This document shows positions 30,092 through 64,000 of a DNA stretch of 64,000 bases, in pieces. The notes under the pieces are model-generated. The model saw only the letters and a list, made by a program, of their open reading frames with translations. It did no database searches and was not told where the DNA came from. How positions within the stretch are numbered: the stretch's first letter is position 1; every line of letters starts with the position of its first letter. The position numbers and the translations under genes were made by a program. This stretch comes from a virus (taxonomy: Duplodnaviria; Heunggongvirae; Uroviricota; Caudoviricetes): positions 38,590-102,589 of IMG/VR virus record IMGVR_UViG_3300031857_000056. One strand, written 5' to 3'.

Positions 30092-31102
30092 TTATTCCTT
30101 ACTTCCAAGTAGGTAAGTATTGCTAATAGCCTTGAAACTAAACTCCCGTTCAAGACCACGAACAACTACACCTTCACGGTCAACACCCATATTCAATACA
30201 CTCTTACCTTCAGCATACTTCAACATATTATCAACCAAGTTTTCATTGGGTAATACATATCCATACTTTTCAAGTACAGGTACCATTGGCACTTCCAACC
30301 TAAACAACAACCACTCCAGTTCATCAAAGAACATACGACGACCCTTATCAATGTCATAACCAGTAAAGAAAAACAACTTGTGGTCGCTCAATCCATACAA
30401 ATTACCATTGATATTTGAACCAATCAATTCTCCCTGAAGCGCAATGTTCTTGCCATACTTAGTCAACTTATCCTTCAACTCAAGCATATTAGCCATACGC
30501 CATAGACTATTGTCATTGGTTTCAGTCAACTCCCAATTACGTCCACAAACACCAAATACACCATTATTGAAGTAACAAGTGAAACTAGTACCATCCAACT
30601 TCTCAGTGATATACACTCGTTCTCCAACAGGCACAAAACCAATGTCACTTTCAAAGTTCTGAATACGAGTTTCATCCGTCTTTGGAATAAAACTAGGAAA
30701 TGTACCCTTGATCTTTCCAGCCAATTGAGCAGGAATAGGAGGTTCATACTTGACAATATCAAGAGCCTCTGTCAAATCATCACCTTCCTTTGGATCAATT
30801 ATACCATCTGGAATTGGAGTCAATAGACCTTGACTCAATTGTCCACGCAACTTGATGGTCTTAAGACGAAATCCTTCAGCGGTTCCCATACGCTTGAAAC
30901 TACTCTTACGCAAGAATTCAAACTGAGGTCGGATAGGTAAGAAGCTGTCAATTTCATAATAAACAGCCAAGTCACCCACCTTATATTCATCCTTCTTTAC
31001 CACAACTTTCCAACCCTTGACATTAGCCACAACAATGGCATCAGCACCAACAATAGGTTGAATGTCAACAATCTTTACAACACTAGCCAATTTACGTTCC
31101 AT
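30092..31102 (-). CDS. ATP-dependent RNA ligase, Rnl5/DraRnl-like with N-terminal OB-like domain
   Basis: 'ITEKLDGTSF' KxDG motif. N-terminus 'KIVDIQPIVGADAIVVANVKGWKVVVKKDEYKVGDLAVYYEIDSFLP'. Track start at 31144 is TTG; ATG at 31102 (MERKLAS) or 31141. Confidence 0.6.
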   Translation of the reverse strand: MERKLASVVKIVDIQPIVGADAIVVANVKGWKVVVKKDEYKVGDLAVYYEIDSFLPIRPQFEFLRKSSFKRMGTAEGFRLKTIKLRGQLSQGLLTPIPDGIIDPKEGDDLTEALDIVKYEPPIPAQLAGKIKGTFPSFIPKTDETRIQNFESDIGFVPVGERVYITEKLDGTSFTCYFNNGVFGVCGRNWELTETNDNSLWRMANMLELKDKLTKYGKNIALQGELIGSNINGNLYGLSDHKLFFFTGYDIDKGRRMFFDELEWLLFRLEVPMVPVLEKYGYVLPNENLVDNMLKYAEGKSVLNMGVDREGVVVRGLEREFSFKAISNTYLLGSKE

Positions 31103-31118
31103 ATTTGTCCTTTCTAAA

Positions 31119-31436
31119 TTAATAAGAGTCAAACTCAACATCAAGTGAATTGAAATTGATAGTAGACGGATCTACATCCAAATCAATACCACCATCAACA
31201 ACAAAAACCTTCAAATCCTTCTTAATCTCGGTAGAAGGTCCACCACTACAGCTACAACCAGAGCTATAACACCAAGTGACGTTACCATCCTTGTCTACAC
31301 CAACACCCTCATAAGAGTGATGACCATAACCCCAATTCTCATTCTCAATCTCCTTGAAAATGACAACGATATCATCATCAAACTTGCTCTTAGGAAGAGC
31401 GTCCCAATTCTGTACAATGTAATCTACGATATTCAT
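31119..31436 (-). CDS. hypothetical protein
   Basis: ORF of 105 aa. Confidence 0.35.
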   Translation of the reverse strand: MNIVDYIVQNWDALPKSKFDDDIVVIFKEIENENWGYGHHSYEGVGVDKDGNVTWCYSSGCSCSGGPSTEIKKDLKVFVVDGGIDLDVDPSTINFNSLDVEFDSY

Positions 31437-31526
31437 TACTCATCTAAGTTACCACGGAGTTTATACAAAGTCAACAAAAAACCCGCAGAATTTCTTCAAC
31501 GGGTCACCAATGTTACTTGTTATTTT

Positions 31527-32432
31527 TTACTTGTTGGTACTTCCAATATTAATGAATGGAACAACACCTCCACCATTATACACCGGCAACTTACCATCCC
31601 ACCTCTGAAGTGCTTCATACTGAACCAGTGACGGAGTTAGTGACTGTGCCAACACAAGGTTAGCTTTTGCTTGAGCCTCTGCCTTTAGAGCAATACTCCT
31701 TGCTTCACCTTCCGCCTTAGCAATATTACTTTCCTTCTCACCACGAGCCTTTTCAATCACTTGATCTGCCTCTGCCTTTGACTGCTTGACCTTAGTCTCA
31801 GCCTCAATAGCACGTTGTGATGCTTCAAGTACTGCATTGATACGTGCCTGAACACTTTGATCTACACGAAGACCACCGTGGAAGCTAATCAACTCAAACT
31901 TGAATCCCTTGGGGCCAAGATGGGCATTGAGATTGCTCTTTACATTGTCAAGAAGGTACTGCTTACGTTCACCAAAGATATCACTAGCTTTCATTGTACT
32001 AGCAACTCGGTTGAATGCATTATTGATTTCATTCCGCATAAATCCGTGGGTAATAACGTCTGGATCTTGTCGGAACTCAACAAAGATTTGTGGAACCTTA
32101 TCTGCCACAAATGTATAAGCAAGTGCAATATCTGCATTAACTACTGCACCCTCAATACTATTGAATGTAACACTATCATCACCGGGACTTTCCTTTGAAC
32201 CAGCTGCCCTATCCCACACAGCATTTTGCATAAATGTGGGGAACTTATAGATATCTTCTGTAAGAGGATTATAGAAGACACCACCAGTCACAAGAGGAAA
32301 GTCATTGACTCCCTTCTGACTACCCCACTGATTTACCTTGATGCCAACATAACCAGGTTCAACCCTGTCACAACCAGTAAAGGTTGAAATGGCGACGATA
32401 CCAGCAATAATACTAACAATGTTCTTATTCAT
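31527..32432 (-). CDS. SPFH/band-7 (prohibitin/HflK-like) lipoprotein
   Basis: Signal plus lipobox 'ISTFTGC'. SPFH-like core, then Ala/Glu/Lys-rich coiled-coil tail 'QRAIEAETKVKQSKAEADQVIEKARGEKESNIAKAEGEARSIALKAEAQAKAN'. Confidence 0.55.
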   Translation of the reverse strand: MNKNIVSIIAGIVAISTFTGCDRVEPGYVGIKVNQWGSQKGVNDFPLVTGGVFYNPLTEDIYKFPTFMQNAVWDRAAGSKESPGDDSVTFNSIEGAVVNADIALAYTFVADKVPQIFVEFRQDPDVITHGFMRNEINNAFNRVASTMKASDIFGERKQYLLDNVKSNLNAHLGPKGFKFELISFHGGLRVDQSVQARINAVLEASQRAIEAETKVKQSKAEADQVIEKARGEKESNIAKAEGEARSIALKAEAQAKANLVLAQSLTPSLVQYEALQRWDGKLPVYNGGGVVPFINIGSTNK

Positions 32433-32673
32433 TTTCTTTATTTTCTGACTTGATGTTCTTGACCAACTTGGTCACATCACTTTTTAAGATTATCAGCGAC
32501 CCGATAAAAAGTCCAGCGAAAAGTGCGGTTCCAACAAGATTTGCAACGTCACTCTTTTGATTAATTAAATTAGTGGATTGATTAAACAAACAAGCGCCCA
32601 CTGTAAGTACAACAAAATACTTTGCACAATACTTTACAATATTTTTATTACTAAACATAAATTTTTCATTCAT
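32425..32673 (-). CDS. small membrane protein
   Basis: Two hydrophobic segments. Overlap-coupled to the SPFH gene. Confidence 0.35.
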   Translation of the reverse strand: MNEKFMFSNKNIVKYCAKYFVVLTVGACLFNQSTNLINQKSDVANLVGTALFAGLFIGSLIILKSDVTKLVKNIKSENKENE

Positions 32674-32728
32674 ATCAAATAGACTATACTACAAAAAAGA
32701 GGAACTGTCAAGTCCCTCTTAAATGTTT

Positions 32729-33373
32729 TTAATGATGTTTATCTTGCTTAACGTGATTCTTGTTCATCATAATCTTCTGAATCTCTGGAAAAGACAACGG
32801 CTTGCCGTGACCATCCCAACCCACATCCAGAATTTTATTGTCTGGGTTATCAAGTTGAGTAGTTGGATTGGTATAGTGGCTGTGACCACTCAACTGCCAA
32901 GCACCCTTTTGCATCTGATTAAAAATCTGATGTGGGTAATGATGAATAACAATCATATGACCATTTACAATTAGTTCCTTGTAATAACCCAGATAAGTTA
33001 TCTTACCAACTGCATATGGATACACTTCAATATCTTTACCATATTCAGTTGCAATAGCTTCTTCATACAATCTACGAATACAACTGTTATGATTACCCCA
33101 AATATAAGCAATATTTTGACAATTGATTCGTGCTAGAATTTCATTGAACTCTGGAGGGGTAATGTTTAGACAAAAATCACCCAGATGAATTAGTGTATCT
33201 TCTGGACGCACTACTTCATTAATCTTTGCAATCAAAGCATCATCGTGTTCATAACGATCTTTATAACCTCTAGCTTCAAATATGAAACTTTGGTTATGCC
33301 GGAAATGAGTATCACTGGTAAAGAATACCTTGTGACTATCATTATGTGTTAGTTTTAGAGGTCTTTCAAACAT
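32729..33373 (-). CDS. calcineurin-like metallophosphoesterase (Pnkp-type 2',3'/3' phosphatase candidate)
   Basis: 'SDTHF' (DxH), 'GDFCL' (GD), 'GNHN', 'HH', 'GHSH'. Overlaps the kinase gene by 8 nt. Confidence 0.65.
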   Translation of the reverse strand: MFERPLKLTHNDSHKVFFTSDTHFRHNQSFIFEARGYKDRYEHDDALIAKINEVVRPEDTLIHLGDFCLNITPPEFNEILARINCQNIAYIWGNHNSCIRRLYEEAIATEYGKDIEVYPYAVGKITYLGYYKELIVNGHMIVIHHYPHQIFNQMQKGAWQLSGHSHYTNPTTQLDNPDNKILDVGWDGHGKPLSFPEIQKIMMNKNHVKQDKHH

Positions 33374-33824
33374 AAATCATTACATCAATTCCTTCATTAA
33401 AGGATGGATCTTCATATTTTGATAGCATCCTATCAATAATATTTGTAGGCACAACTCTACCACCTTGTTCTCCTCGTTTCTTGTTTCTTTCAATTAATCC
33501 TTGACGATCCATCTTGAAAACAATAGCAACTACTTTTGCACCATATTTCTTTGCAGTCTTAATATAGTCACTACGTTCCTTACGGTTTACACTGGTTGCG
33601 TCAACCAATACATTTTTACCATCTTTTAGAAATTCGTCAACCTTTCTTTTGATGTGACCGAAAACAAGTGGGGTAACAGTTTGATCTTCTTCACTTTTAC
33701 CATATACAGCACGTAGTGAATCACTACTTAGATATTCAATATCTTTGTCTTTAATAAAGTTTTTTGCATATGTGGATTTACCACTTCCAGGCAATCCAAC
33801 CGCAATATAAAGTGTATTATTCAT
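33366..33824 (-). CDS. pnk: polynucleotide 5'-kinase (T4 Pnk kinase-domain-like)
   Basis: 'GLPGSGKSTYA' P-loop, 'DATSVNRKER', 'NKKRG...VP..IIDRM'. Collinear with the T4 Pnk kinase domain. Confidence 0.6.
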   Translation of the reverse strand: MNNTLYIAVGLPGSGKSTYAKNFIKDKDIEYLSSDSLRAVYGKSEEDQTVTPLVFGHIKRKVDEFLKDGKNVLVDATSVNRKERSDYIKTAKKYGAKVVAIVFKMDRQGLIERNKKRGEQGGRVVPTNIIDRMLSKYEDPSFNEGIDVMIYV

Positions 33825-33830
33825 ATGTAC

Positions 33831-33858
33831 ATCTTAACTCAACTTGTTATAAAGTCAA
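33831..33858 (-). promoter_or_regulatory. sigma70-like promoter TTGACT-16-TAAGAT, 6 nt from the ATG
   Basis: Read on the minus strand: TTGACTTTATAACAAGTTGAGTTAAGATGTACATATG. Confidence 0.5.
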
Positions 33859-33928: not shown

Positions 33929-34300
33929 ATGGTTGGTTACAGAGTAACAAAAGGTAAATATATGTTAAAGTATCTATTAGTATTGACCGCAGCATTGTCT
34001 TTAAATGCTCAACAAGGTCCAAAACAACCAAAAACAGGTGGACCAGATCCAGTACCACCACATTTGCGTCCTGAACGTCCCAAGTTGACTGAAGAACAAA
34101 AGAAGCAACGTAGTGAACTTGTTGCTAAATATGATGCAAATAAAGATGGTAAGTTGGACAAAGAAGAACGTATCAAGGTTAGTGACGCTGATCGTAAGTT
34201 AATGAGAAGTTTTGGTCCACCTCCAAGAGGTCCAAAACACGATGGTCCTCCTCCAACAAAAGATGGTGAAAGACCAGGTAAACCACACAAGAAGAACTAA
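33929..34300 (+). CDS. secreted Pro-rich protein with an EF-hand-like loop
   Basis: Signal peptide. 'DANKDGKLDKEE' Ca-binding loop pattern. Plus-strand island ending at a bidirectional terminator. Confidence 0.45.
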   Translation: MVGYRVTKGKYMLKYLLVLTAALSLNAQQGPKQPKTGGPDPVPPHLRPERPKLTEEQKKQRSELVAKYDANKDGKLDKEERIKVSDADRKLMRSFGPPPRGPKHDGPPPTKDGERPGKPHKKN

Positions 34301-34303: not shown

Positions 34304-34336
34304 AAATAACCCCACTAAATTAGTAGTGGGGTTTTT
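34304..34336. repeat. dispersed 33-35 bp terminator-containing element, copy 1 of 3
   Basis: 'aaataaccccactaaattagtagtggggttttt'. Compare with 35451..35484 and 36181..36210. Confidence 0.6.
34310..34331. terminator. bidirectional intrinsic terminator (ccccacta..tagtgggg)
   Basis: 8-bp stem, T5 on the plus side and A-rich on the other. Between convergent genes. Confidence 0.6.
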
Positions 34337-34352: not shown

Positions 34353-35426
34353 TTACGGTGTTTGTATAGCATTGAGTAATGCTCTTGCTACAACACGATC
34401 TTTTTCTTTTTCTTCTTCAGGAAGTGAAGAATAATTTACATTTGACAATTTTCTTCTTTGTTCAATTTTAGCGTCCAATTTACCATTATCTCTCAACTTT
34501 TGAGTATCACTGAATTGGTCTGGGTTTGCCACAAACTTTTTAGCAGTTTCATTCCAACCACTATGAATTGCATCCGAAATCTTTTCTATGTCAGTTACAC
34601 CCGCGTCAATTACTCTTTTGGCAAATTCCGCTGATTTTAAATTGGCTTGCCATCCAAATGTATTACCCGGAGTGCTTCTACCATAATGATAAGCATTATC
34701 CAATGCTTCATCACTAACGGTTGCCAAATCTTCTATTGACATATTTTCATTCAACTTCTTGTGTAGAAGTTTAAGATGCTTTTGAAATGTTTCGTTTAAA
34801 ATATTCTGGTTCATATGATTATAAGTATCTTCGGTTATATGTAATTGTTTTAAAAAAAAGTCAACAATTTCTTTTATTATAGGTGCTAATCCTTTCGTGG
34901 AAAACATAATATCAGATTCTTTTTCAACGTCATCAAAATCTAAATCATAACTTCCAAGCTTTAAACCATTAGTAATGATATCACGTATACTTTTAAGTGC
35001 AGCTCCATCACCACTCAATCCTTTTTTATACAATATCAACTTTGCAACTTTCATTAATAAACCAATTGTAATTGTATAATATATCGTAATAGCAATATGT
35101 TTTAATTCAGATTCATCTTTTGTTTTTAGTTTTGGTATTTTTTTCAATACAAACACCAATCCATTAATATATGATGTAGCCCATTTATCAATATTATCTA
35201 TTGCAATTTGAATTTTTGGTAACATAGTTTTTGTTACAAAATTTGCAGTCTTCGATTTGTTAGAATCAGCAAACAAATTTTTAGGCATAATTAATGCAAT
35301 TAAATTTTTTACTATATTAAGAAATGCAGCAGATATTACTGGTAAGGTAAGCAGCAATGTCACAATTGATACTACATCTCCAATTCCTTCTACATATAGT
35401 TTTTTCTTATTTACATTTTTAGCCAT
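34353..35426 (-). CDS. membrane-anchored hypothetical protein (C-terminal half paralogous to 35506..36165)
   Basis: N-terminal transmembrane segment 'VVSIVTLLLTLPVISAAFL'. Internal 'LNETFQKHLKLLHKKLNENMS' parallels the N-terminus of the next gene. Confidence 0.45.
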   Translation of the reverse strand: MAKNVNKKKLYVEGIGDVVSIVTLLLTLPVISAAFLNIVKNLIALIMPKNLFADSNKSKTANFVTKTMLPKIQIAIDNIDKWATSYINGLVFVLKKIPKLKTKDESELKHIAITIYYTITIGLLMKVAKLILYKKGLSGDGAALKSIRDIITNGLKLGSYDLDFDDVEKESDIMFSTKGLAPIIKEIVDFFLKQLHITEDTYNHMNQNILNETFQKHLKLLHKKLNENMSIEDLATVSDEALDNAYHYGRSTPGNTFGWQANLKSAEFAKRVIDAGVTDIEKISDAIHSGWNETAKKFVANPDQFSDTQKLRDNGKLDAKIEQRRKLSNVNYSSLPEEEKEKDRVVARALLNAIQTP

Positions 35427-35450: not shown

Positions 35451-35484
35451 AAATAAACCCCACTAAATTAATAGTGGGGTTTTT
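35451..35484. repeat. terminator-containing element, copy 2
   Basis: 'aaataaaccccactaaattaatagtggggttttt'. Confidence 0.6.
35458..35479 (-). terminator. intrinsic terminator hairpin
   Basis: Stem ccccacta/tagtgggg, flanked by A7 and T5. Confidence 0.55.
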
Positions 35485-35505: not shown

Positions 35506-36165
35506 TTAAACTAATACAGCGTCATATAACTGGTTTGAATTGGCTGCTTTTATTCGTAGTTCCACTTTGCCAGCACTTCGAATTACATCAATTACCACGG
35601 CACCCATTAAACCATCTGGTTCATTACCTTCATTAGTTACTTCATCAACTGGTCTTTTTAATCCGCCGGCTGTATAGAGTATATCTAATAATTGTTTAAA
35701 GTTTTCGTCACTCCAATTTGGAAAGTTGCTTCTAACATCAGGATCCCCGCCTCCTTGACTCATACTTACAAAATCTCTAGCGGACATTTGCAAAGATGAT
35801 GAACCTTTACCAAAATGTTTTATATATTGATTAGCAGTGTTTTTTACTTTTTCATCTGAAACACCACTGCCTTTTTTAACAATTTTTACAAACTCATTTC
35901 CTTTCAATTCAAAACCACTTTCTTTGAATGCATCCACCAATTCATTAAATGCATCCGTACCTTTTTCAATATCTAAATCATTCAAAACGGTATCAACTTC
36001 AAATGAAGAGGTATAACCACTACTATTTTGATCTAACCAAAAGGCTAGTTTAGCATCTATAGTGTCGTCGTCAGGCTCAAATAATCCTTCATTCAACTGA
36101 AGTTTTTTATTTAGAAGACCCAAATGTTTTTTAAATGTTTCGTTAAGTAAATTGCTCATATACAA
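35506..36165 (-). CDS. hypothetical protein (paralog of the C-terminal part of 34353..35426)
   Basis: 'LNETFKKHLGLLNKKLQLNEG' N-terminus. Confidence 0.45.
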   Translation of the reverse strand: MYMSNLLNETFKKHLGLLNKKLQLNEGLFEPDDDTIDAKLAFWLDQNSSGYTSSFEVDTVLNDLDIEKGTDAFNELVDAFKESGFELKGNEFVKIVKKGSGVSDEKVKNTANQYIKHFGKGSSSLQMSARDFVSMSQGGGDPDVRSNFPNWSDENFKQLLDILYTAGGLKRPVDEVTNEGNEPDGLMGAVVIDVIRSAGKVELRIKAANSNQLYDAVLV

Positions 36166-36180: not shown

Positions 36181-36210
36181 AAATAAAACCCATCAAATTA
36201 ATGATGGGTT
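36181..36210. repeat. terminator-containing element, copy 3 (diverged)
   Basis: 'aaataaaacccatcaaattaatgatgggtt'. Confidence 0.5.
36187..36210 (-). terminator. intrinsic terminator hairpin (aacccatca/tgatgggtt)
   Basis: 9-bp stem downstream of the Rnl1-like gene, with A-rich and T-rich flanks. Confidence 0.45.
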
Positions 36211-36216
36211 CTACTA

Positions 36217-37308
36217 TTAGTTCTTTAAGACTTGGAACATCAACTTCTTATATTCTTCCTTACCTAATGGACGATTATCCAAGAGTTTAAATACAAAAGC
36301 AGCTCTGTTTGTTTCACCATAAGATGAAATAACCAGTTGTGCTTGTTCTTTTCTGGTAGGCAATGAACGAAGTCTGTTATTCACAAAACTATTCATACCA
36401 TCCACAATCTTGTTTACTTCCTTCTTACCATCCGCAATACGGCTAATAGTACCTTTAATTTGTTCTGCTAACTCGAAATCAAAGGTGGTAAAGATATAGT
36501 TATAAAAAGTGTTGTAGTCAGGCATACCCTGTTCCAACCACACATCCATAATTTTTTCCAGTGAACTAAGTTCAGACTTTAGATGATGTAACAGGAGATA
36601 TTTAGATGCTTTAATCTTATGAATAGTCTGATCATTCTTACTATATAAGCATACGCCTTCTTTATCTTGCCACTTATCTACAATCTGTAACATATCAGTT
36701 ATATCAGTAAAAGTATAGATTTCCGGACGAAGTAAATCATACTTCTTAGCCATAGCATCCAACATATCTTGTTGTGCAAGTGAATAGTTGATATGATTAA
36801 TAAAACCAATCAACTTCCACATAGGTTCATCGCCATACGATAACACAATTTTATTGATTGGAGACAGCCATTCCCAAATGATAGAATAACCCCAAGTATC
36901 ATTGTTATCCTGTAACTTACTTAGAATAGTTGACTTGAACAATTCTAACTCAAAACCATTAGCCATAGTAGAAGCATCAACAGTTCCACGGGTTCGTAGA
37001 ATATATTGACCCTTATACTTGCTAACAATCAAAGTGCTACCGTCCAACTTTTCAACAACAGTGCAATGCTTCAATGAAGCAGGAACAGGAAAGTGTTCAG
37101 GATTCTCCCCATAGTTAGTAAACTTCGGAAATGATGCACTAATAACTTCACCCTCATAATTCACAACCACACTACGCATGTGCTTGTTGTCTTGCGTCCA
37201 CTTAGTGCCAATATTTTGGGGTTGAATCAAATGGACAATTTCACCGAAAGCGTGGAAATGGTGCACCATAAATTGAGTGCGGTCAACCTTATCTATGTCA
37301 ATTTTCAT
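36217..37308 (-). CDS. rnlA: RNA ligase 1 (T4 RnlA-like, tRNA repair)
   Basis: 'VVEKLDGSTL' KxDG, 'FPKFTNYGENPEHF' (compare T4 'KFFNLNENP'), 'EGVCLYSKNDQTIHKIKASKY' motif IV/V pattern. Confidence 0.65.
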   Translation of the reverse strand: MKIDIDKVDRTQFMVHHFHAFGEIVHLIQPQNIGTKWTQDNKHMRSVVVNYEGEVISASFPKFTNYGENPEHFPVPASLKHCTVVEKLDGSTLIVSKYKGQYILRTRGTVDASTMANGFELELFKSTILSKLQDNNDTWGYSIIWEWLSPINKIVLSYGDEPMWKLIGFINHINYSLAQQDMLDAMAKKYDLLRPEIYTFTDITDMLQIVDKWQDKEGVCLYSKNDQTIHKIKASKYLLLHHLKSELSSLEKIMDVWLEQGMPDYNTFYNYIFTTFDFELAEQIKGTISRIADGKKEVNKIVDGMNSFVNNRLRSLPTRKEQAQLVISSYGETNRAAFVFKLLDNRPLGKEEYKKLMFQVLKN

Positions 37309-37314
37309 AGATTT

Positions 37315-37343
37315 ATCTTACAACAGATTTTAAAGAAAGTCAA
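37315..37343 (-). promoter_or_regulatory. sigma70-like promoter TTGACT-17-TAAGAT, 6 nt from the ATG
   Basis: TTGACTTTCTTTAAAATCTGTTGTAAGATAAATCTATG. Confidence 0.5.
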
Positions 37344-39731: not shown

Positions 39732-40250
39732 TTAAATGTCAAACACTTTTCCGTCAAAATATGCTTTACATCCCAAAACTCGGTCAATCGCAAAGATTTT
39801 CACATCAGCTTCACTAAACATAGTAAATGTAGCATTATCGTGTCCCTTCCATTGTTCACGTTGTGCCTCATTACACAAATCATTAAATTGCCGGTGTATA
39901 TAAACATCTTTGATGCCACTTTGGATGATTCCCCTAGCACAGTCTGCACAAGGCAAAGCATTGGTATAAAGAATTGCGCCATCGGTGTTTATACCGTACC
40001 TAGCAGCTGCGTAAATCGCATTGCGTTCACCGTGTTCGTACCATTTGTACTTTTCTGGTCGTTCGTTACGAATTTCATTTTTGTCTGCTACCCCAATAGG
40101 AATGCCATTGAAGCCAGTAGATATGATTCGTTTGTCTTTTACAATGAGAGCACCAATCTTTGTCTTGGGATCTTTGGATTTACTTGCAACCCAATAGACT
40201 CCTTGTAAAAACCATTCGTTCCAATCTGGTGGTGTATAATTTAATCCCAT
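39732..40250 (-). CDS. deoxycytidylate (dCMP) deaminase
   Basis: 'DWNEWFLQGVYWVASKSKDPKTKIGALIV', 'HGERNAI' (H-x-E), 'LPCADCARGIIQSGIK' (PCxxC). Track start at 40259 is TTG; the ATG is at 40250. Confidence 0.7.
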   Translation of the reverse strand: MGLNYTPPDWNEWFLQGVYWVASKSKDPKTKIGALIVKDKRIISTGFNGIPIGVADKNEIRNERPEKYKWYEHGERNAIYAAARYGINTDGAILYTNALPCADCARGIIQSGIKDVYIHRQFNDLCNEAQREQWKGHDNATFTMFSEADVKIFAIDRVLGCKAYFDGKVFDI

Positions 40251-40786
40251 AAGTGACAATAGTATTTTGCAAATAGTTCTAGACCTTTTTGTTTGCGTTC
40301 TTGTAATTCATTGTGTTTTTTCATCCACTCATCAAAAGATTGTTTTTGTTCTGGAGTTTTTCCTTTATTTAGAAGCCATTCTGTATCTCCAAGATAATGT
40401 GGAAATGGATTGAATCGTTCGTCATCATTTAGATATTCAAATGTCCAAATAAGTTCATCAAGTACATTTTCCCATTCTTCTGGTGTGAAATCTGGATGAT
40501 AACCATACCGTTTCATTTTCTTGAAGTGTTTTAGTCTGGGTAGAATAAACTTACTGAATGTACCATCCAAACTCCAACATTCTTCATTACTTACACCATA
40601 ACGCATACGTTGATATGTACTAATAAACCATCGTTTAATGTCATGACATTTGTAATATACACGCCAACCATATGGTACTGTATCAAACAACCAGTCACCA
40701 AATTTATTGGTTCTATACCATTTTTCTTCTGAAAGAGGTGTGTTTTCAGAATCTTCTAATCGTTCGTTGATTTTTTTGAGATCCAT
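40241..40786 (-). CDS. hypothetical protein
   Basis: ORF of 181 aa, Trp/Tyr-rich. Confidence 0.4.
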   Translation of the reverse strand: MDLKKINERLEDSENTPLSEEKWYRTNKFGDWLFDTVPYGWRVYYKCHDIKRWFISTYQRMRYGVSNEECWSLDGTFSKFILPRLKHFKKMKRYGYHPDFTPEEWENVLDELIWTFEYLNDDERFNPFPHYLGDTEWLLNKGKTPEQKQSFDEWMKKHNELQERKQKGLELFAKYYCHLWD

Positions 40787-41406: not shown

Positions 41407-42186
41407 TTACAGATCGCTATAGTTCTTCAGTTCAATCTTACCATTTAGTATGGTAATATACTGACTAAGATTACAATCAATACAAATGTTGTTTGCATCA
41501 ACGATATTAGCAAATCCTTCTCTATGATATTGTGCGGCTTTACCAGTTCGCCATTGATTTGTATGACCCACAATTTGTCTCAACTCTTCAATGGGTTGAA
41601 ACTCTTCGTTAAAATCACACCAAACAATACCACCACATTTGTTTCTACCACCCCTTGCATATCCAGCGCCATAAAACCAATGTGGTTCATTGATCTTTAG
41701 TTTGGTTCTAGCATCATTATCACTTTGATCCAGATACTTGAAGATAACTTCATTTGTGGCACAAATTGGAGGTAACAAACGTTTATCCAATCCAGCGTGG
41801 GTTAATAGAATATCATCTACAACAATCGACCAGTGAAACTTATCTTGTATATCACCTCTGACCTTGCCAATAACGTTATCAATTGCATCATACTTCCATT
41901 GTTCATAACCACTACACCAAGATGTAGAAGCATTAAACAGATAGTGTATATCGTGATTACCAAATAGAGTATAGTTCTTTGGGTTAGGAAGAAATACATC
42001 TCTTAGATATTTGGCTGTAGCAACATAGTCAGTAACATCATCCAAATTGAAACTATCAAACCAATCACCCAAACAAATGTTGATATCGCCATCTTCTTTG
42101 GTAAAGATGGTATCCAACTTTGTGTAATGATTATGTGGATCAGCAGCAATTACAATCTTTTGTTTATTGGAACTAAACTTTAGCAT
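41407..42186 (-). CDS. metallophosphatase (lambda-PPase/ApaH-like Ser/Thr phosphatase family)
   Basis: 'DPHNH', 'GDWFD', 'GNHD', 'THAG' motifs. Confidence 0.55.
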   Translation of the reverse strand: MLKFSSNKQKIVIAADPHNHYTKLDTIFTKEDGDINICLGDWFDSFNLDDVTDYVATAKYLRDVFLPNPKNYTLFGNHDIHYLFNASTSWCSGYEQWKYDAIDNVIGKVRGDIQDKFHWSIVVDDILLTHAGLDKRLLPPICATNEVIFKYLDQSDNDARTKLKINEPHWFYGAGYARGGRNKCGGIVWCDFNEEFQPIEELRQIVGHTNQWRTGKAAQYHREGFANIVDANNICIDCNLSQYITILNGKIELKNYSDL

Positions 42187-46419: not shown

Positions 46420-46420
46420 A

Positions 46421-48736: not shown

Positions 48737-48969
48737 AGTATGATCTTTTCCTTCTCAAAATATTCAGTAACTTCATCATTCCAAGGCTTGTTGATGTCAT
48801 CTAACTTATTAGCAATAGAACGCATTATATGTGACGGCCAGCAACCATCATTACTTGGCCAGAAATAATAATAACCATCAACATCCATAATAAGTTCACC
48901 AACTAAATGATTATTCGGAGTCAGTACGTGGAACTTCTGGTTGTTGATCTGTTTGTAAATTAGATTCAT
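48733..48969 (-). CDS. hypothetical protein
   Basis: ORF of 78 aa. Overlaps 48911..49411 by 59 nt, so one of the two starts is uncertain. Confidence 0.3.
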   Translation of the reverse strand: MNLIYKQINNQKFHVLTPNNHLVGELIMDVDGYYYFWPSNDGCWPSHIMRSIANKLDDINKPWNDEVTEYFEKEKIIL

Positions 48970-51452: not shown

Positions 51453-52159
51453 AATTTGATTAGTTTTATGTCACCTTCTAATGTCTCAATTATATACGAT
51501 GTATTTTCTCCAACAATAAAACTACCACAATTGTAATAGTTTATACCATCAATAATGGTACATTCTGGTTTGTGTATATGACCGCATAAAATACTATCGT
51601 GTCCACTATTTTTACAATAGTGTACAACGGTAGCTTCATAATTGCCTATGTACTTAACTGCTTCTTTTGCTTTTTGTTTGAGAAAGTTACTGAAGCTAAA
51701 TTTGAATATTCTAAATAGTTTATTTACCGACAAACTATAATCGTATATTACTGAACCAATATGTTGTATCCACTTATTTTTGGTTACTAATCCATCAAAT
51801 TGATCTCCGTGAATAATTAATATTCTTTCGTTTTTTAATGTGGTATGAGTGATTTCTCTTACAACTTGTATATTATCGCCAAAGTATATGTCATTGAATG
51901 GTTCGATAAAGTCATCGTGGTTACCCCAAATATAATATACTTTGGTTCCTTTACGACTCATACGCAATATTTTTTGCAATATTGTGTTATAATTGCTATG
52001 CCACTTAAACTTTCTACTCAATAACCAACCATCAATAAAATCACCTACAATATACAAATATTCACATTCAACTTCACTTAATAGTTTCAATAATTTTTCG
52101 TGGTTACAAAAATCACTACCTATATGACAATCACTTATAAATAATGTGCGTACTTTCAT
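51449..52159 (-). CDS. metallophosphoesterase, LpxH-like
   Basis: 'LFISDCHIG', 'YIVGDFIDGW', 'WGNHDDF', 'GHIH'. Confidence 0.55.
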   Translation of the reverse strand: MKVRTLFISDCHIGSDFCNHEKLLKLLSEVECEYLYIVGDFIDGWLLSRKFKWHSNYNTILQKILRMSRKGTKVYYIWGNHDDFIEPFNDIYFGDNIQVVREITHTTLKNERILIIHGDQFDGLVTKNKWIQHIGSVIYDYSLSVNKLFRIFKFSFSNFLKQKAKEAVKYIGNYEATVVHYCKNSGHDSILCGHIHKPECTIIDGINYYNCGSFIVGENTSYIIETLEGDIKLIKL

Positions 52160-52593: not shown

Positions 52594-52929
52594 TTATTTC
52601 TTTGTTTTCTTTAATGTTTGATGAATATTACCCACAACAAGTAGATCTTCATCAAACATTGCTAGAGGAAATTCATCTAAATACCACCCATAACTATCCC
52701 AGATTACATTACTATAATGGTTTTTACGCCCAAACTTTTGTCTGACGATATCACCTTCGAAGATTCTAGTGCCTTTGATATCATTTAGTCCAGTATATTC
52801 TTCAATGATGGTTTCATTGCGATTAAAGCATTGTGCTAGATGTGCAGTACCTTCACAACCATAAAGAGAACCAGTCATAGTGTACTTGTTTTCTTTGATG
52901 TTAAAGATTCTGTAAATGAATTGTCTCAT
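52594..52929 (-). CDS. YopX-family protein, paralog 2
   Basis: 'EEYTGLNDIKGTRIFEGDIV'. Confidence 0.5.
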   Translation of the reverse strand: MRQFIYRIFNIKENKYTMTGSLYGCEGTAHLAQCFNRNETIIEEYTGLNDIKGTRIFEGDIVRQKFGRKNHYSNVIWDSYGWYLDEFPLAMFDEDLLVVGNIHQTLKKTKK

Positions 52930-53300
52930 AGTAGTTTTAGATGTTTAGTGACTGGATCTATAATGGAACTATAATTAGGTCCAATAGATATACAAGTGAT
53001 AGTAGGTTCATCAAACAAGTCATTTTCTTGAATATAATAAACTTTTAGTCCAATAGCAACAGCTTGATGTCCAATATCAAGCAATTCTTTTTCATCCTTT
53101 GCTGCTAAACAAACCTTATAGAAGGTTCCGTTAATCCATTGTTCTTCACACTTATAGAATGGAATAACATCGTCGGGATATGCTCTGACTAGATTGGTTA
53201 AGAAAGCAATACTTGCGTGAGCACCTTGAACAACCATTTGTCCTTTGCTCAATTTTATATCCTTACGAAACACAATAACTTGTTTTACTTTATCGTTCAT
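52926..53300 (-). CDS. peptidyl-tRNA hydrolase, PTH2 family
   Basis: 'VIVFRKDIKLSKGQMVVQGAHASIAF' parallels the PTH2 signature '[22 protein letters not shown]'. Confidence 0.5.
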   Translation of the reverse strand: MNDKVKQVIVFRKDIKLSKGQMVVQGAHASIAFLTNLVRAYPDDVIPFYKCEEQWINGTFYKVCLAAKDEKELLDIGHQAVAIGLKVYYIQENDLFDEPTITCISIGPNYSSIIDPVTKHLKLL

Positions 53301-61399: not shown

Positions 61400-61429
61400 A
61401 CTTTACCACGGGAAATTAAAGAAAGTCAA
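61400..61429 (-). promoter_or_regulatory. sigma70-like promoter TTGACT-18-[TGG]TAAAGT with a 15-nt leader containing GGTGGAG
   Basis: TTGACTTTCTTTAATTTCCCGTGGTAAAGTGGTGGAGTAATAAAAATG. Confidence 0.45.
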
Positions 61430-62013
61430 TCATTATTTTTTACAAAATCCCACTTGTCAGCATCATTCATTCTTGCACTAATACCATCACACAAATGCAA
61501 CAACCACGCAGCTTTAGTCTTTGGCATCACCGGACTACCCCACTCACGCTGTCCGTGATGTGACAAAATGTTGTGGGTAACACTATCAGCATACTTACCA
61601 TATTTTAAACTATGTGTAGCTACAGCACTATTCCATACCAATGCACTACGACTAATATGATGAATAGTTCTTTTGTGTTCTGTGCCAAACCATACATTGT
61701 ATGACTTATCCACTGGCTCATAATCCCACATTTTGCCACAATCGTGAAATAATGCACTCAAATACAATTCAATCGGGTCAATATCTATGATGTTACAAAA
61801 TGTTGTGGATTTCAATAAATTAAAATTAGCAAAACACAACCCAACCACTTCACAAGTATGTTGTATCAAACCACCTTTACCATAGTGATGTTGATGTTTT
61901 TTGCTACTACCACTCCACAACTCAAATCGTGGGTCATCAATTACCACAGAAGCAATATCATATACACCCAAATTATTTGCTCGGTCAATCAAATGTTGTT
62001 TATAATCATTCAT
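61426..62013 (-). CDS. HD-domain phosphohydrolase
   Basis: 'H..E', 'ALFHDCGK' (HD), 'HH', 'LSHHGQREWGSP', 'D' in 'LCDGIS'. Confidence 0.5.
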   Translation of the reverse strand: MNDYKQHLIDRANNLGVYDIASVVIDDPRFELWSGSSKKHQHHYGKGGLIQHTCEVVGLCFANFNLLKSTTFCNIIDIDPIELYLSALFHDCGKMWDYEPVDKSYNVWFGTEHKRTIHHISRSALVWNSAVATHSLKYGKYADSVTHNILSHHGQREWGSPVMPKTKAAWLLHLCDGISARMNDADKWDFVKNND

Positions 62014-62019
62014 AATCTT

Positions 62020-62047
62020 ACTTTACCACAGAAATTCCTAAAGTCAA
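62020..62047 (-). promoter_or_regulatory. sigma70-like promoter TTGACT-16-[TGG]TAAAGT, 6 nt from the ATG
   Basis: TTGACTTTAGGAATTTCTGTGGTAAAGTAAGATTATG. Confidence 0.5.
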
Positions 62048-63040: not shown

Positions 63041-63427
63041 TTATCTAATTGTAGTTCCGTCACTCGTAGTAACATTAGTTTTAGCATTAAGCTTATCAAG
63101 TGCTTGTTGTACAGATGAACGCCACTTGTTATTGTCTTTGATAGTCTCCATATCATCTGAAATAAAATTAATACCATTAGATGATGGTACATTGGCAGTA
63201 CTAATCCCGCCGCCTCCATCCATCACTGGATTATCAGTACGATGTATAGTGACAAAAGGCACATTTCCACAATATGTGTTTGGAAGTGGATTAGTAGGCC
63301 AATTTGGATTGGTTGCACTAATATTTAGTGCTTGACGACACTGTTCATACAAAGCTGTTACTTCTTGTTCAGTTAGAAAATATGCAGCGTCTTTGATTGT
63401 TAGTTTAAAAGTCTTTTCAATAGTCAT
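63041..63427 (-). CDS. hypothetical protein
   Basis: Track start at 63463 is TTG and overlaps the promoter -35. The ATG is at 63427 (MTIEKTF), 7 nt after the -10. Confidence 0.4.
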   Translation of the reverse strand: MTIEKTFKLTIKDAAYFLTEQEVTALYEQCRQALNISATNPNWPTNPLPNTYCGNVPFVTIHRTDNPVMDGGGGISTANVPSSNGINFISDDMETIKDNNKWRSSVQQALDKLNAKTNVTTSDGTTIR

Positions 63428-63434
63428 ATAATTT

Positions 63435-63463
63435 ATATTAACCGTTACCCCAAACAAAGTCAA
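63435..63463 (-). promoter_or_regulatory. sigma70-like promoter TTGACT-17-TAATAT, 7 nt from the ATG
   Basis: TTGACTTTGTTTGGGGTAACGGTTAATATAAATTATATG. Divergent from the plus-strand promoter. Confidence 0.45.
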
Positions 63464-63471
63464 GTACTTTC

Positions 63472-63500
63472 TTGATTTGTATCTTTGTTCGTGGTATATT
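63472..63500 (+). promoter_or_regulatory. sigma70-like promoter TTGATT-17-[TGG]TATATT, 8 nt from the ATG
   Basis: TTGATTTGTATCTTTGTTCGTGGTATATTTATAAGATATG. Confidence 0.45.
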
Positions 63501-63508
63501 TATAAGAT

Positions 63509-64000
63509 ATGATACTTTCAGAAAATCGTCACGTTGAAAAAGGATGCTTAATGGCACAAGTGAGTCCTACATATGGACCACACGTTATTAGACTAGGTAG
63601 AACTGCAATACCTCCACATATACTATATACAGATCCAAACGATCCTACATACGGTTATGACGATGAACCCCACGTTACACTAAAATACGGTTTTGAACCA
63701 GATTTAAGCAAAATGAACGTGGCTAAAATACTTCAAGGTACAAAGCCATTTAATATTGTATTAAAAGCACTCAACTTGTTTGAAAATGACAAGTTTGATG
63801 TGGTAAAGTTTGAAGTGCAAAAATGCCCCACACTCACAGAACTAAGACGTAGATGTGATGGTTATCCTAATAATGATAGTTATCCTGACTACAATCCCCA
63901 TATGACACTTGCTTATGTAAAGAAAGGTACTTTTCCACATATCAAAGATAATCTAAATATAGCTCTACCAATTACCCGATTCAAATATAGTGGTCCCAAT
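63509..64000 (+). CDS. 2H phosphoesterase (LigT/2',3'-cyclic phosphodiesterase-like), 3' partial
   Basis: Two H-x-T-x motifs, 'PHVTLKYG' and 'NPHMTLAYV'. Open to the window end. Not in the ORF track. Confidence 0.55.
   Translation, partial: MILSENRHVEKGCLMAQVSPTYGPHVIRLGRTAIPPHILYTDPNDPTYGYDDEPHVTLKYGFEPDLSKMNVAKILQGTKPFNIVLKALNLFENDKFDVVKFEVQKCPTLTELRRRCDGYPNNDSYPDYNPHMTLAYVKKGTFPHIKDNLNIALPITRFKYSGPN

Follow-up and report, generated by a model that had tools for sequence, protein, structure and literature searches.

Four enzymes encoded on the minus strand within 7.2 kb of an uncultured aquatic phage genome, an Rnl1-like ligase, a polynucleotide 5'-kinase, a standalone metallophosphoesterase (MPE) and an Rnl5 ligase, probably constitute a phage module for RNA end-healing and end-sealing. 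The window analysed is a stretch of 64,000 nt (IMG/VR record IMGVR_UViG_3300031857_000056, positions 38,590-102,589). A first-pass annotation had proposed a dispersed RNA-repair toolkit of seven genes, an interpretation which is partly supported: all seven ORFs are present with the proposed boundaries or within a few codons of them, each carrying its predicted domain according to Pfam, PHROG, NCBIfam or PDB matches, and the core is a compact cluster instead of being dispersed. The core and its adjacent elements are arranged as follows.

37306..37343, minus strand: leaderless-type promoter ending at the Rnl1 ATG (TTGACT-N17-TAAGAT-N7-ATG)
36217..37308, minus strand: Rnl1-like ATP-dependent RNA ligase, 363 aa, monocistronic unit
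36182..36215, minus strand: intrinsic terminator directly past Rnl1, 14-bp stem followed by a T-run
33822..33858, minus strand: leaderless-type promoter ending at the kinase ATG (TTGACT-N16-TAAGAT-N7-ATG)
33366..33824, minus strand: polynucleotide 5'-kinase of the Pnkp-kinase-domain type, 152 aa
32729..33373, minus strand: standalone binuclear MPE, aq_1665-like, 214 aa, overlapping the kinase stop
32697..32720, minus strand: intrinsic terminator past the MPE; the next unit's promoter overlaps it
31119..32673, minus strand: intervening block of g82 (small membrane protein), an SPFH/Band-7 protein (31527..32432; Band_7 5.4e-18, phrog_200) and g105
30092..31102/31144, minus strand: Rnl5 (DraRnl/NgrRnl-type) nick-sealing RNA ligase with N-terminal OB and adenylyltransferase domains
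30060..30087, minus strand: intrinsic terminator past Rnl5, 11-bp stem followed by a T-run
29100..29831, minus strand: g243, short Pol-beta-fold nucleotidyltransferase of the Gad2 family (PF26128), 243 aa

The Rnl1-like ligase is identified by PF09511 (8e-11, 42.6 bits vs a cutoff of 28.3), by phrog_562 (1.4e-32 across residues 35-360) and by T4 Rnl1 (PDB 2c5u, 1.7e-8), with whose catalytic motifs I (KLDG, K87), IV (EG) and V (KIK) its own can be aligned. Its score on TIGR02308 is 58 bits vs a cutoff of 242, and it is therefore a distant member. The Rnl5 ligase, 336 aa counted from the ATG at 31102, contains the PF21189 OB domain (4.7e-40), the PF09414 domain (2.6e-25) and a KLDG motif at residue 182; it scores 191.8 bits on TIGR02306, above the NCBIfam equivalog cutoff of 151, and matches NgrRnl (PDB 5cot) over its full length (1.5e-70).

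The kinase (AAA_33, 2.8e-27; Walker A GLPGSGKS) finds its best NCBIfam match in TIGR04075 bacter_Pnkp (6.9e-23, profile positions 9-131). Among PDB structures, the CthPnkp kinase (4gp7, 2.4e-16) ranks before Pnkp1 (3e-12) and T4 Pnk (8e-9), and the Walker A and SSDxxR motifs align with CthPnkp. By these comparisons the kinase stands nearer to the bacterial Pnkp enzymes than to its T4 counterpart; RNA-repair Pnkp and tRNA kinases, among them PSTK, are its closest relatives. The bacterial Pnkp architecture initially ascribed to the kinase and the MPE thus holds for the kinase, but not for the MPE, whose closest structure is aq_1665, a protein without assigned function, and whose family has no characterised member. 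We propose that the MPE is a 2',3'-cyclic-phosphate/3'-phosphate end-healing enzyme. The suggested coupling of both genes was borne out, as they overlap by 8 nt (ATGTTTGA), are served by a single leaderless promoter and are followed by a terminator, which supports translational coupling within one unit.

A scan with the motif TTGAC-N16-18-TAnnnT-N5-9-ATG yielded 18 matches vs 1.8 expected, every one ending at an ORF start, and terminator-like sites in the region number 15 vs 4.7 expected. Leaderless-type promoters and terminators bound the core units, the Rnl1 unit and the Rnl5-containing unit each having a promoter at one side and a terminator at the other. In agreement with the earlier proposal of leaderless promoters, matches end at the starts of Rnl1, the kinase, g82, g105 (the gene directly preceding Rnl5) and the HD gene described below; downstream of the MPE, the promoter of the next unit (32711..32683, minus strand; TTGACA-N17-TATAGT) matches at 11 of 12 positions. 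Since leaderless promoters are confined to the region where the small minus-strand genes lie, the units are probably expressed early. A minus-strand ORF at 34009..34290 upstream of the kinase was rejected as spurious, the actual gene there being on the plus strand. In the region, terminators of nearly identical sequence also enclose variable single-gene cassettes (g219, g357), and the SPFH block is removable. This block, g82-SPFH-g105, probably lies outside the repair chemistry; it is missing in contigs L001, L002 and L003/L004, where the MPE runs straight into Rnl5 and kinase, MPE and Rnl5 are contiguous.

The order Rnl1...kinase-MPE...Rnl5-g76-g243 is kept in all ca. 22 related IMG/VR contigs. 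Beyond this clade, recurrence was assessed in 29 non-redundant clusters of MPE homologues (28-63% identity) by counting neighbours within 4 kb. A Pnk-like kinase was found in 10/29 clusters, Rnl1 and Rnl5 in 8/29 each and at least one of these in 13/29, while 16 clusters have no kinase or RNA-ligase neighbour; the count is 0-1/29 for each of six unrelated genes of the window that served as controls (ThyA, DHFR, dCMP deaminase, Mom, APS-kinase-like and GT1). Rnl1 is the most frequent immediate MPE neighbour in L090-L100. Kinase, MPE, Rnl1 and Rnl5 accordingly form a module recurring across distantly related phages. The genes might instead be independent accessory or counter-defence genes, gathered in an early-expressed, recombination-prone island and adjacent without a shared pathway, a view for which the variable cassettes and the removable block speak. 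Such an unstructured island is unlikely because the association of kinase, MPE and RNA ligase greatly exceeds that seen with the control genes; moreover, the kinase/MPE coupling is encountered again in unrelated phages in reverse order, the gene order in distant phages often being MPE before kinase, overlapping.

In bacteria the MPE was found in a different context: none of 80 loci has a kinase, ligase or nucleotidyltransferase neighbour, and the MPE family is therefore not intrinsically an RNA-repair enzyme. This would fit a small-molecule phosphodiesterase acting on, e.g., cyclic nucleotides, Ap4A or lipid/sugar pyrophosphates, paired with the kinase in nucleotide metabolism, and the window does encode a dCMP deaminase, ThyA, DHFR and another small kinase. 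However, what recurs beside the MPE in phages is a polynucleotide ligase or a Pnk-like kinase rather than ThyA, DHFR or dCMP deaminase, and we regard a metabolic function of the pair as quite improbable.

Some, albeit low, probability has to be granted to the possibility that the kinase, the MPE, Rnl5 and perhaps the nucleotidyltransferase g243 serve the repair of DNA or RNA-DNA junctions in replication or recombination and not tRNA repair. Kinase and MPE would then clean nicks with 5'-OH and 3'-phosphate ends, and Rnl5 would seal nicks with a 3'-ribonucleotide alongside the phage DNA ligase (23629..24726). DraRnl tolerates DNA in the 5'-PO4 and template strands and contributes to genome recovery after irradiation, radiation resistance in Deinococcus being the sole known Rnl5 physiology (PMC5397189). 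In cultured phages, the neighbours of Rnl5 are not healing enzymes but primase or DNA-ligase genes: both of them in Limnohabitans phage DC31, a primase in Mic1 and PS3. In 6/29 clusters the MPE homologue has a DNA ligase within 4 kb, and DNA-ligase-like genes abut or overlap Gad2-family nucleotidyltransferases in L246, L270 and L289. On the other hand, the module also holds an Rnl1-type ligase, a type whose characterised member acts on tRNA loops and which is the most frequent immediate MPE neighbour in L090-L100; the kinase is nearest to RNA-repair and tRNA kinases; and the DNA ligase of the window is located ca. 4.4 kb past g243 in a different unit.

The gene g243 beside Rnl5 had been absent from the first list of components. 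Its product, with the motif AGGA...DSDVDV, is related to Gad2 of the SPbeta-like Bacillus phages (SPbetaL7: tblastn 3e-8, pairwise BLASTP 7e-15) by 29% identity over 164 aa of the N-terminal nucleotidyltransferase domain, including the AGG, DxD, KIQ, FDF and R..KY motifs, and the precomputed annotation PF26128 is common to homologues of both. The C-terminal ca. 240 residues of Gad2 are missing from g243, and in SPbetaL7 neither a ligase nor a kinase lies near Gad2, unlike in the case of g243. The gene is syntenic with Rnl5-g76 throughout the clade, and similar nucleotidyltransferases are found close to distant MPEs. Gad2-family members also occur in Yersinia jumbo phage fHe-Yen9-03, near an RNA ligase and Pnkp, and in Aeromonas phiA009, near Rnl5. 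However, in 38 of 51 Gad2-family clusters, those closest to Gad2 included, none of the genes for kinase, RNA ligase, MPE and DNA ligase is a neighbour, and the anti-Gabija activity of Gad2 has been validated (bioRxiv 10.1101/2023.05.01.538930), both of which would suit an island of independent counter-defence genes. We treat g243 as a candidate for either an RNA 3'-end-repair nucleotidyltransferase or an anti-Gabija factor.

Three further genes had been counted as parts of the toolkit.

52926..53300, minus strand: PTH2 peptidyl-tRNA hydrolase, 124 aa, accessory (PF01981, 2.5e-24)
61426..62013, minus strand: YhaM-type HD-domain hydrolase, 195 aa, without the YhaM OB domain (PF01966, 8e-6)
63509..64000, plus strand: 2H phosphoesterase with HVTL and HMTL motifs, 171 aa in full (read from contig L132), the window end cutting the last 7 residues

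They encode tRNA- or RNA-related enzymes whose connection to the module is loose at best. PTH2 has no IMG/VR relatives, sister contigs included, and is not conserved in the clade, although homologues are annotated in mycobacteriophages, jumbo phages and huge phages. The HD protein matches YhaM (9h3f, 3.4e-12, chain residues 144-286; NF010007, 5e-12) and is predicted to be a YhaM-like nuclease domain; its membership of the repair set is uncertain, the gene adjoining an Rnl1-MPE-kinase-Rnl5 cluster only in one distant phage (L222/L102). Equally uncertain is the membership of the 2H protein (PF13563, 6e-13, 49.5 bits), whose gene is the first of a divergent plus-strand operon 30 kb from the core and whose homologues occur beside kinase and MPE, or near kinase and Rnl5, only in some distant lineages. 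On the Acb1 (anti-CBASS) model PF23474 it reaches 26.1 bits vs a cutoff of 27, i.e. the family border, and distant homologues exceed this cutoff or are fused to DEDD exonucleases. As members of an island, the 2H protein would degrade cyclic-nucleotide signals like Acb1, g243 would counter Gabija like Gad2, the HD protein would be a nuclease and PTH2, missing from relatives, would relieve translation stress.

For the RNA-repair module we propose the following scenario. The Pnkp-type P-loop kinase would phosphorylate 5'-OH RNA ends, and the coupled MPE would strip the 2',3'-cyclic or 3' phosphate to yield a 3'-OH. Prior to ligation, g243 may restore lost 3'-end nucleotides. The break would then be sealed by one of the two ATP-dependent ligases, presumably by the Rnl1-like enzyme where the break lies in a single-stranded loop, e.g. 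a tRNA anticodon loop, and by Rnl5 at duplex nicks, e.g. in tRNA stems. Rnl5 enzymes seal duplex nicks with an RNA 3'-OH (PMC5397189, PMC4408790), and Toprim tRNases are known to leave ligase-sealable 5'-P/3'-OH nicks in tRNA stems (PMC12445682). The 64-kb window itself contains no tRNA genes.

This scenario shares the heal-then-seal logic of T4 Pnkp and Rnl1, directed against the PrrC anticodon nuclease, with a 5'-kinase, 3'-end healing and an Rnl1-family ligase of conserved catalytic motifs. In T4, however, the kinase is fused to a HAD (DxDxT) phosphatase, whereas here a separate MPE is found and no HAD domain; the kinase appears more like bacterial Pnkp, and the second ligase is Rnl5 instead of Rnl2. 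The T4 repair genes are scattered, while those of this phage are clustered. Pnkp-Hen1 of Clostridium thermocellum, whose Pnkp combines kinase, metallophosphoesterase and ligase in one polypeptide, offers the nearest kinase domain and the same class of binuclear metallophosphoesterase chemistry, and its domain order is mirrored by the gene order kinase-MPE-ligase in L002 and L003. Here, in contrast, the proteins are separate, the ligases are Rnl1 and Rnl5 and not the Pnkp C-terminal ligase domain, and no Hen1 methyltransferase was detected among the ORFs scanned. The phage Rnl5 is homologous to DraRnl of Deinococcus radiodurans and NgrRnl of Naegleria gruberi over the full length, including the signature OB and adenylyltransferase domains; the physiological role of this family is described as uncharted and the Deinococcus operon partner is a DEDDh-like protein, whereas here Rnl5 is embedded in a cluster of healing enzymes.

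The combination of several non-redundant RNA ligases with healing enzymes in large phages has already been published: Iyer, Anantharaman, Krishnan, Burroughs and Aravind (2021, PMC7824862) reported jumbo phages combining several RNA ligases, polynucleotide kinases, phosphoesterases, 2H enzymes and ligase-associated Pol-beta nucleotidyltransferases, and interpreted such sets as counter-measures to tRNA-cleaving immunity. In that survey HAD phosphatases are typical and the nucleotidyltransferase is RlaP (PF10127); in this phage their places are taken by a standalone aq_1665-type MPE, recurring as kinase partner across many uncultured phages, and a Gad2-family protein. The RNA-repair set of this phage is thus of a known kind, but built from unusual parts and adjoining a Gad2 relative. 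By analogy with the T4 Pnkp/Rnl1-PrrC paradigm, a counter-defence role is a reasonable inference, and the module would most likely serve to mend RNA that nucleases of host immunity or abortive infection have cut.

The seven genes that the first-pass annotation had assigned to an RNA repair and tRNA-healing toolkit are all present with the predicted domains, as judged from profile, motif and structure-sequence matches. The toolkit had been described as dispersed; instead, its core genes for an Rnl1-like ligase, a kinase, a metallophosphoesterase (MPE) and an Rnl5-type ligase form a cluster on the minus strand within 7.2 kb.

Genes of the core region and outlying genes (window positions)
36217-37308, minus, Rnl1-like RNA ligase
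35506-36165, g219, single-gene cassette between Rnl1 and kinase
34353-35426, g357, single-gene cassette between Rnl1 and kinase
33929/33962-34300, plus, small secreted EF-hand-like protein
33366-33824, minus, polynucleotide kinase
32729-33373, minus, standalone MPE
31527-32673, minus, SPFH/Band-7 and small membrane protein genes
30092-31102/31144, minus, Rnl5-type ligase
29100-29831, minus, g243, putative Gad2-family nucleotidyltransferase (NTase)
52926-53300, minus, PTH2 protein
61426-62013, minus, HD protein
63509 to window end, plus, 2H phosphoesterase

The kinase is a P-loop polynucleotide kinase whose top matches are the bacterial Pnkp model TIGR04075 (bacter_Pnkp, positions 9-131, 6.9e-23) and the kinase domain of Clostridium thermocellum Pnkp (4gp7, 2.4e-16), with which its Walker A and SSDxxR motifs align, whereas the match to T4 Pnk is weaker (8e-9). 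The ORF covers positions 3-142 of the 295-position phrog_505 and residues 4-140 of 1ltq; it is only 152 aa long, with no HAD domain detected. Unlike T4 Pnkp, where the kinase is fused to a C-terminal HAD (DxDxT) 3'-phosphatase, the window kinase lacks that fusion, and in contrast to bacterial Pnkp (TIGR04075), which unites kinase, phosphatase and ligase in one polypeptide of ~850 aa, the window has one ORF for the kinase (152 aa) and another for the MPE (214 aa), which overlap by 8 nt at the stop of the former and the start of the latter. Relatives of the kinase found by homologue search were all at least 89% identical and hence uninformative on architecture.

The MPE matches phrog_547 ('phosphoesterase') at 4e-39 and gave no Pfam or NCBIfam match, the Pnkp model included. 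All five metal-ligand motifs (DxH, GD, GNH, H and GHxH) are present and invariant across 40 homologues, and the predicted structure reveals the MPE beta-sandwich fold (pLDDT 95.6). Among the best 150 of the 6,782 homologues obtained in an exhaustive search of 1.84 billion representatives, nearly every protein stands alone, with a length of 190-255 aa (maximum 299 aa), and none is fused to a kinase. The phosphatase of Pnkp is lambda-phosphatase-like (PMC3675462), and the window MPE proved not to be a central phosphatase domain of this type. The earlier designation 'split Pnkp' is thus apt for the kinase half but not for the MPE. The standalone homologues, the missing match to the Pnkp model and the lambda-like character of the Pnkp phosphatase argue that the pair is a non-orthologous assembly of the same chemistry rather than a broken Pnkp gene. 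As to a Hen1 partner, no methyltransferase was detected among the ~45 ORFs scanned with Pfam, PHROGs or NCBIfam.

The Rnl5 ORF is a textbook member of the Rnl5 (DraRnl/NgrRnl) family. It combines the PHA02142 OB domain (PF21189, 136 bits) with an RNA_ligase domain (PF09414, 90 bits), carries the lysine nucleophile motif KxDG as KLDG at residue 182, exceeds the TIGR02306 equivalog cutoff (191.8 versus 151.15 bits) and matches Naegleria NgrRnl (PDB 5cot) end to end (residues 17-347 to 5-336, 1.5e-70). In six cultured phages neither kinase nor MPE adjoins Rnl5, which is therefore not universally linked to healing enzymes. The second ligase scores 42.6 bits on PF09511 (cutoff 28.3) and is covered nearly over its full length by phrog_562 (residues 35-360). 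Motifs I (KxDG), IV (EG) and V (KxK) occur in Rnl1 spacing, and KLDG, EG and KIK align with K99, E227/G228 and K240/K242 of T4 Rnl1 (2c5u, 1.7e-8). The score on TIGR02308 is far below the equivalog cutoff (58.1 versus 242 bits), with only positions 69-280 of 373 aligned, and the protein is best described as a distant member of the Rnl1 family whose C-terminal domain is not demonstrably T4-like.

Comparison of the window proteins by local tblastn with 45 related loci indicated that the order Rnl1...kinase-MPE...Rnl5-g76-g243 is kept in all ~22 distinct contigs. The g82-SPFH-g105 block is absent in the related IMG/VR loci L001, L002 and L003/L004, where Rnl5 directly follows MPE and the genes run kinase-MPE-ligase, as do the domains of bacterial Pnkp. 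Kinase and MPE genes overlap in all relatives except two contigs, L001/L023 and L033, in which an insertion of ~0.9-1 kb, which may be a mobile gene, splits them. Promoters and intrinsic terminators divide the core region into the following units (g76, g82 and g105 being further ORFs).

Transcription units of the core region
Unit 1, minus: promoter, Rnl1, terminator
Unit 2: g219, terminator
Unit 3: g357, bidirectional terminator
Unit 4, plus: gene of the small secreted EF-hand-like protein
Unit 5, minus: promoter, kinase-MPE, terminator
Unit 6, minus: promoter, g82-SPFH, promoter, g105-Rnl5, terminator
Unit 7, minus: g76-g243

The remark that several of the toolkit genes lie behind leaderless promoters was borne out. 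The motif TTGAC(T/A)-N16-18-TAnnnT, often with an extended TGGTAAAGT -10 element and followed by N5-9 before ATG, occurs 18 times against 1.8 expected, with every match ending at an ORF start and 17 of 18 on the minus strand between 31434 and 63463 (e.g. 37306-37343, 33822-33858 and 62011-62047, all minus). Among the ORFs behind it are those of Rnl1, the kinase, the HD protein, a third MPE, g82 and also g105, which immediately precedes Rnl5. Its position 5-9 nt before ATG at the 18 sites implies that leaderless or near-leaderless mRNAs are probably widespread in the small-gene region. Intrinsic terminators are also enriched (15 observed, 4.7 expected).

Between the Rnl1 and kinase genes lies an apparent hotspot of variable cargo. 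Most related contigs lack the cassettes g219 and g357 or carry other genes in their place; neither cassette gave a family match in Pfam, PHROGs or NCBIfam, and they were accordingly rejected as repair components. Near-identical bidirectional terminator hairpins (AACCCCACTA...TAGTGGGGTT) at 34308-34333 and 35455-35482 flank these cassettes. The plus-strand gene of unit 4, conserved in the clade, specifies a protein with a signal peptide, proline-rich tails and a loop (DANKDGKLDKEE) of EF-hand-like type; a minus-strand ORF 'g93' (34009-34290), considered as a conserved partner upstream of the kinase, turned out to be its wrong-strand shadow.

For analysing the genomic context of the MPE family, the ORFs of 80 IMG/VR loci with MPE relatives were searched with the window proteins, and the MPE anchors were clustered at 70% identity, which resulted in 29 clusters outside the window clade with 28-63% identity to the window MPE; neighbours were counted within 4 kb of the MPE gene.

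Genes near MPE relatives (clusters of 29)
Pnk-like kinase (Pfam AAA_33): 10
Rnl1-like ligase: 8
Rnl5: 8
At least one of kinase, Rnl1 and Rnl5: 13
g243-like NTase: 4 further clusters
DNA ligase: 6
ThyA, DHFR, dCMP deaminase, Mom, APS-kinase-like, GT1: 0-1 each

Gene order is often altered, common arrangements being an overlapping MPE-kinase pair followed by Rnl5 (L104, L117, L124, L127) and Rnl1 directly upstream of MPE (L090-L100). The aq_1665/phrog_547 family is also common in Bacteroidales and Microvirga/Methylobacterium (480 relatives found). Among 80 bacterial loci (L310-L389) with MPE homologues at 30-36% identity, none has kinase, ligase or NTase neighbours, and the repair-gene context is thus specific to phages. 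Two further calcineurin-like metallophosphoesterases are encoded on the minus strand, which makes three in the window: one at 41407-42186, behind a leaderless promoter, and one at 51449-52159, which resembles LpxH/YfcE and has weak PHROG matches to 'DNA repair exonuclease'.

The best-supported reading of the core module is a heal-and-seal pathway. The kinase would generate 5'-phosphate ends and the MPE would convert 2',3'-cyclic or 3'-phosphate ends to 3'-OH, upon which Rnl1 would seal loop breaks and Rnl5 duplex nicks. This division of labour is deduced from the action of T4 Rnl1 on tRNA loops and of Rnl5 on duplex nicks bearing an RNA 3'-OH, and from Toprim tRNases, which cut tRNA stems to 5'-P/3'-OH ends directly joinable by ligases (PMC12445682). 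The presence of DNA ligase in six of the 29 clusters means that the MPE family associates with polynucleotide ligases generally, and this co-occurrence, together with the role of DraRnl in radiation survival, speaks for the main rival explanation, a repair of DNA or RNA-DNA junctions. For the heal-and-seal pathway acting on RNA, a counter-defence role would be in line with the precedent of T4, where Pnkp and Rnl1 oppose PrrC, and with the interpretation given by Iyer et al. (PMC7824862).

The syntenic gene g243 downstream of Rnl5-g76 is a component which the first-pass annotation had missed. Its product contains a Pol-beta nucleotidyltransferase signature (AGG...DxD) plus downstream Gad2-family motifs and is related to the N-terminal NTase domain of Gad2 (tblastn 3e-8, pairwise BLASTP 7e-15), with motifs common throughout the core. 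Precomputed PF26128 assignments exist for a 97%-identical g243 homologue and for Gad2 homologues. We thus classify g243, on the basis of its primary structure, as a putative short NTase of the Gad2 (anti-Gabija) family, PF26128. Gad2 is an SPbeta-phage protein genetically shown to overcome Gabija (bioRxiv 10.1101/2023.05.01.538930); a search of the literature turned up no resolved mechanism for it. In contrast to Gad2 with ~400 aa and a C-terminal region, g243 has only 243 aa, aligned to Gad2 residues 16-162, and its AF2 model (pLDDT 51) is too poor for structural claims. The protein gave no Pfam match at E<=0.1, PF10127 (RlaP) included, and no PDB sequence match. Its likeness to RlaP, a ligase-associated NTase that extends damaged tRNA by 1-2 nucleotides (PMC12776372), is limited to the fold class and to genomic association with ligases.

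In the Yersinia jumbo phage fHe-Yen9-03, a Gad2-family NTase has an RNA ligase and Pnkp nearby; in Aeromonas phiA009 the neighbour is Rnl5, and in Stenotrophomonas DLP_6 a DNA ligase and MPE. A kinase, RNA ligase or MPE lies within 5 kb in 10 of 51 non-redundant Gad2-family clusters, five of the ten being one jumbo-phage lineage. DNA-ligase-like genes are near the NTase in four clusters, overlapping it in three of them (L246, L270, L289), and in locus L307 a short Gad2-family NTase is overlapped by an MPE. Neither kinase, RNA ligase, MPE nor DNA ligase neighbours the NTase in 38 of the 51 clusters, those closest to Gad2 included. We consider it possible, if rather improbable in its joint form, that PF26128 NTases including Gad2 are nucleic-acid end-repair enzymes which work with ligases and healing enzymes like RlaP instead of being direct inhibitors; that g243 is the minimal catalytic form, rebuilding RNA 3' ends before ligation together with Rnl5 and kinase-MPE; and that the aq_1665-type standalone MPE, an orphan of structural genomics, is devoted to healing 2',3' ends alongside Pnk-like kinases, within a modular repair cassette widespread among phages. 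The SPFH genes, inserted between MPE and Rnl5 in the window, also adjoin distant MPE homologues in three of 29 clusters and Gad2-family NTases in two of 51 (L120, L125, L129, L131, L283, L309).

For PTH2, HD and 2H, the remaining members of the originally proposed toolkit, the domains were confirmed. These genes are plausible RNA- or tRNA-related accessories, at best loosely tied to a common pathway: PTH2 has no IMG/VR relatives, and 2H and HD have few links to repair genes. The 2H protein, encoded by the first gene of a divergent plus-strand operon and 171 aa long in full in the 96%-identical relative L132, contains two HxT/S motifs (HVTL, HMTL) and scores 49.5 bits on PF13563 (cutoff 27), and 27 bits on TIGR02258 (cutoff 65.7), the equivalog model of the RNA 2',3'-cyclic phosphodiesterase ThpR. 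On the Acb1 anti-CBASS model PF23474 (cutoff 27) the window fragment reaches 26.1 bits and the full-length L132 protein 18.8 bits; several distant homologues score on this model, and the one in L183 with 36.6 bits suggests that the clade borders Acb1. Close 2H relatives have no repair-gene neighbours, and distant homologues lie beside kinase and MPE (L199, L200) or at most 4 kb from kinase and Rnl5 (L194 group). In other homologues the 2H domain is joined to an exonuclease domain of the DEDD/RNase T type (L187 4941-6266, L191 4890-6260) or embedded in ORFs of 670-830 aa (L183, L188). In L132 (5513-7759), where the operon continues past the window end, genes for proteins of 139, 331 and 277 aa follow 2H; the 331-aa protein, with a Pol-beta-NTase-like HGDIDIV motif and a weak 'DNA polymerase' PHROG match (3e-9), is a possible second NTase associated with 2H.

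The 3'-5' exoribonuclease YhaM has an N-terminal OB fold and a C-terminal HD domain; the HD protein aligns with the HD catalytic domain alone (9h3f residues 144-286, 3.4e-12; NF010007 positions 157-285 of 314) and has no OB region. An HD homologue sits next to an Rnl1-MPE-kinase-Rnl5 cluster in a single distant contig of 205 kb (L222/L102), and another lies 3.3 kb from MPE in L215. PTH2 covers positions 1-115 of 115 of PF01981 (86.2 bits, cutoff 23) and remains below the NCBIfam equivalog cutoffs (85.9 versus 126 and 76.4 versus 82 bits). No PTH2 relatives were found in IMG/VR, sister contigs included; in mycobacteriophages and in jumbo and huge phages, PTH2 genes had been annotated before.

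The window has a GC content of ~33%, and from ~23 kb to 63.4 kb nearly every gene is small and on the minus strand. No tRNA or tmRNA genes and no Rfam families were detected in it. INPHARED gave no match by megablast (8 kb) or tblastn (816-aa structural protein), so that the source phage has no cultured close relative. Many IMG/VR contigs, one of 295,831 bp, encode the same proteins at 80-95% identity, and public metagenomes contain hundreds of nearly identical sequences of the kinase. Altogether, these data point to an abundant, uncultured and probably large aquatic phage. Other genes of the window comprise the following.

Further genes of the window
23629-24726, minus, ATP-dependent DNA ligase (phrog_114, 4e-75)
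39732-40259, minus, dCMP deaminase
26656-27081, minus, second, weaker deaminase-like ORF
27133-27840, plus, opposite to its neighbours, Mom DNA-modification homologue (PF25680, 5.8e-44)
45268-48736 and 50427-51452, minus, long (383-aa) thymidylate synthase homologue, DHFR, 145-aa APS-kinase-like P-loop kinase, two to three glycosyltransferase-like genes
44610-45290, plus, GIY-YIG homing-endonuclease-like gene with I-TevI-type DNA-binding motifs

The gene run from thymidylate synthase to the glycosyltransferases suggests DNA base hypermodification or glycosylation. The GIY-YIG gene, directly beside the thymidylate synthase gene on the opposite strand, resembles the classic T4 td/I-TevI arrangement. 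A 166-aa protein (48911-49411, minus) carries a prokaryotic N-terminal methylation (type IV pilin-like) motif (PF07963, 2.7e-5).

Multi-enzyme RNA repair in phages is not new as a general claim, because Iyer et al. (2021) described jumbo phages that combine several RNA ligases, polynucleotide kinases, phosphoesterases (usually HAD-type, occasionally calcineurin-like or HD-like), 2H enzymes and ligase-associated NTases (PMC7824862), and the occurrence of Rnl5 in bacterial viruses was already known (PMC5397189). New are the part list of Pnkp-type kinase, aq_1665-type standalone MPE, Rnl1, Rnl5 and predicted Gad2-family NTase, the evidence for a repeated pairing, in shuffled gene order, of this MPE family with Pnk-like kinases and RNA ligases in phages, and the association of Gad2-family enzymes with ligases.

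Host immunity based on the cleavage of tRNA or other RNA (PrrC, RloC, PARIS, OLD, Cas13, Cas12a3, retron effectors) is increasingly recognised. To our knowledge, phage countermeasures beyond T4 are poorly charted, phage-encoded tRNAs aside. The locus presents a compact, apparently abundant environmental case in which a Pnkp-type kinase, coupled to a standalone MPE and accompanied by both a loop-type and a nick-type RNA ligase, takes the place of the fused kinase-HAD enzyme of T4. These findings extend a known theme and do not overturn current understanding. The neighbouring Gad2-family enzyme prompts an experimental look at how Gad2 defeats Gabija, and the recurrent linkage in unrelated phages offers a first testable function for the large uncharacterised family of phrog_547 and aq_1665 (PDB 1xm7) with its more than 6,000 representatives.
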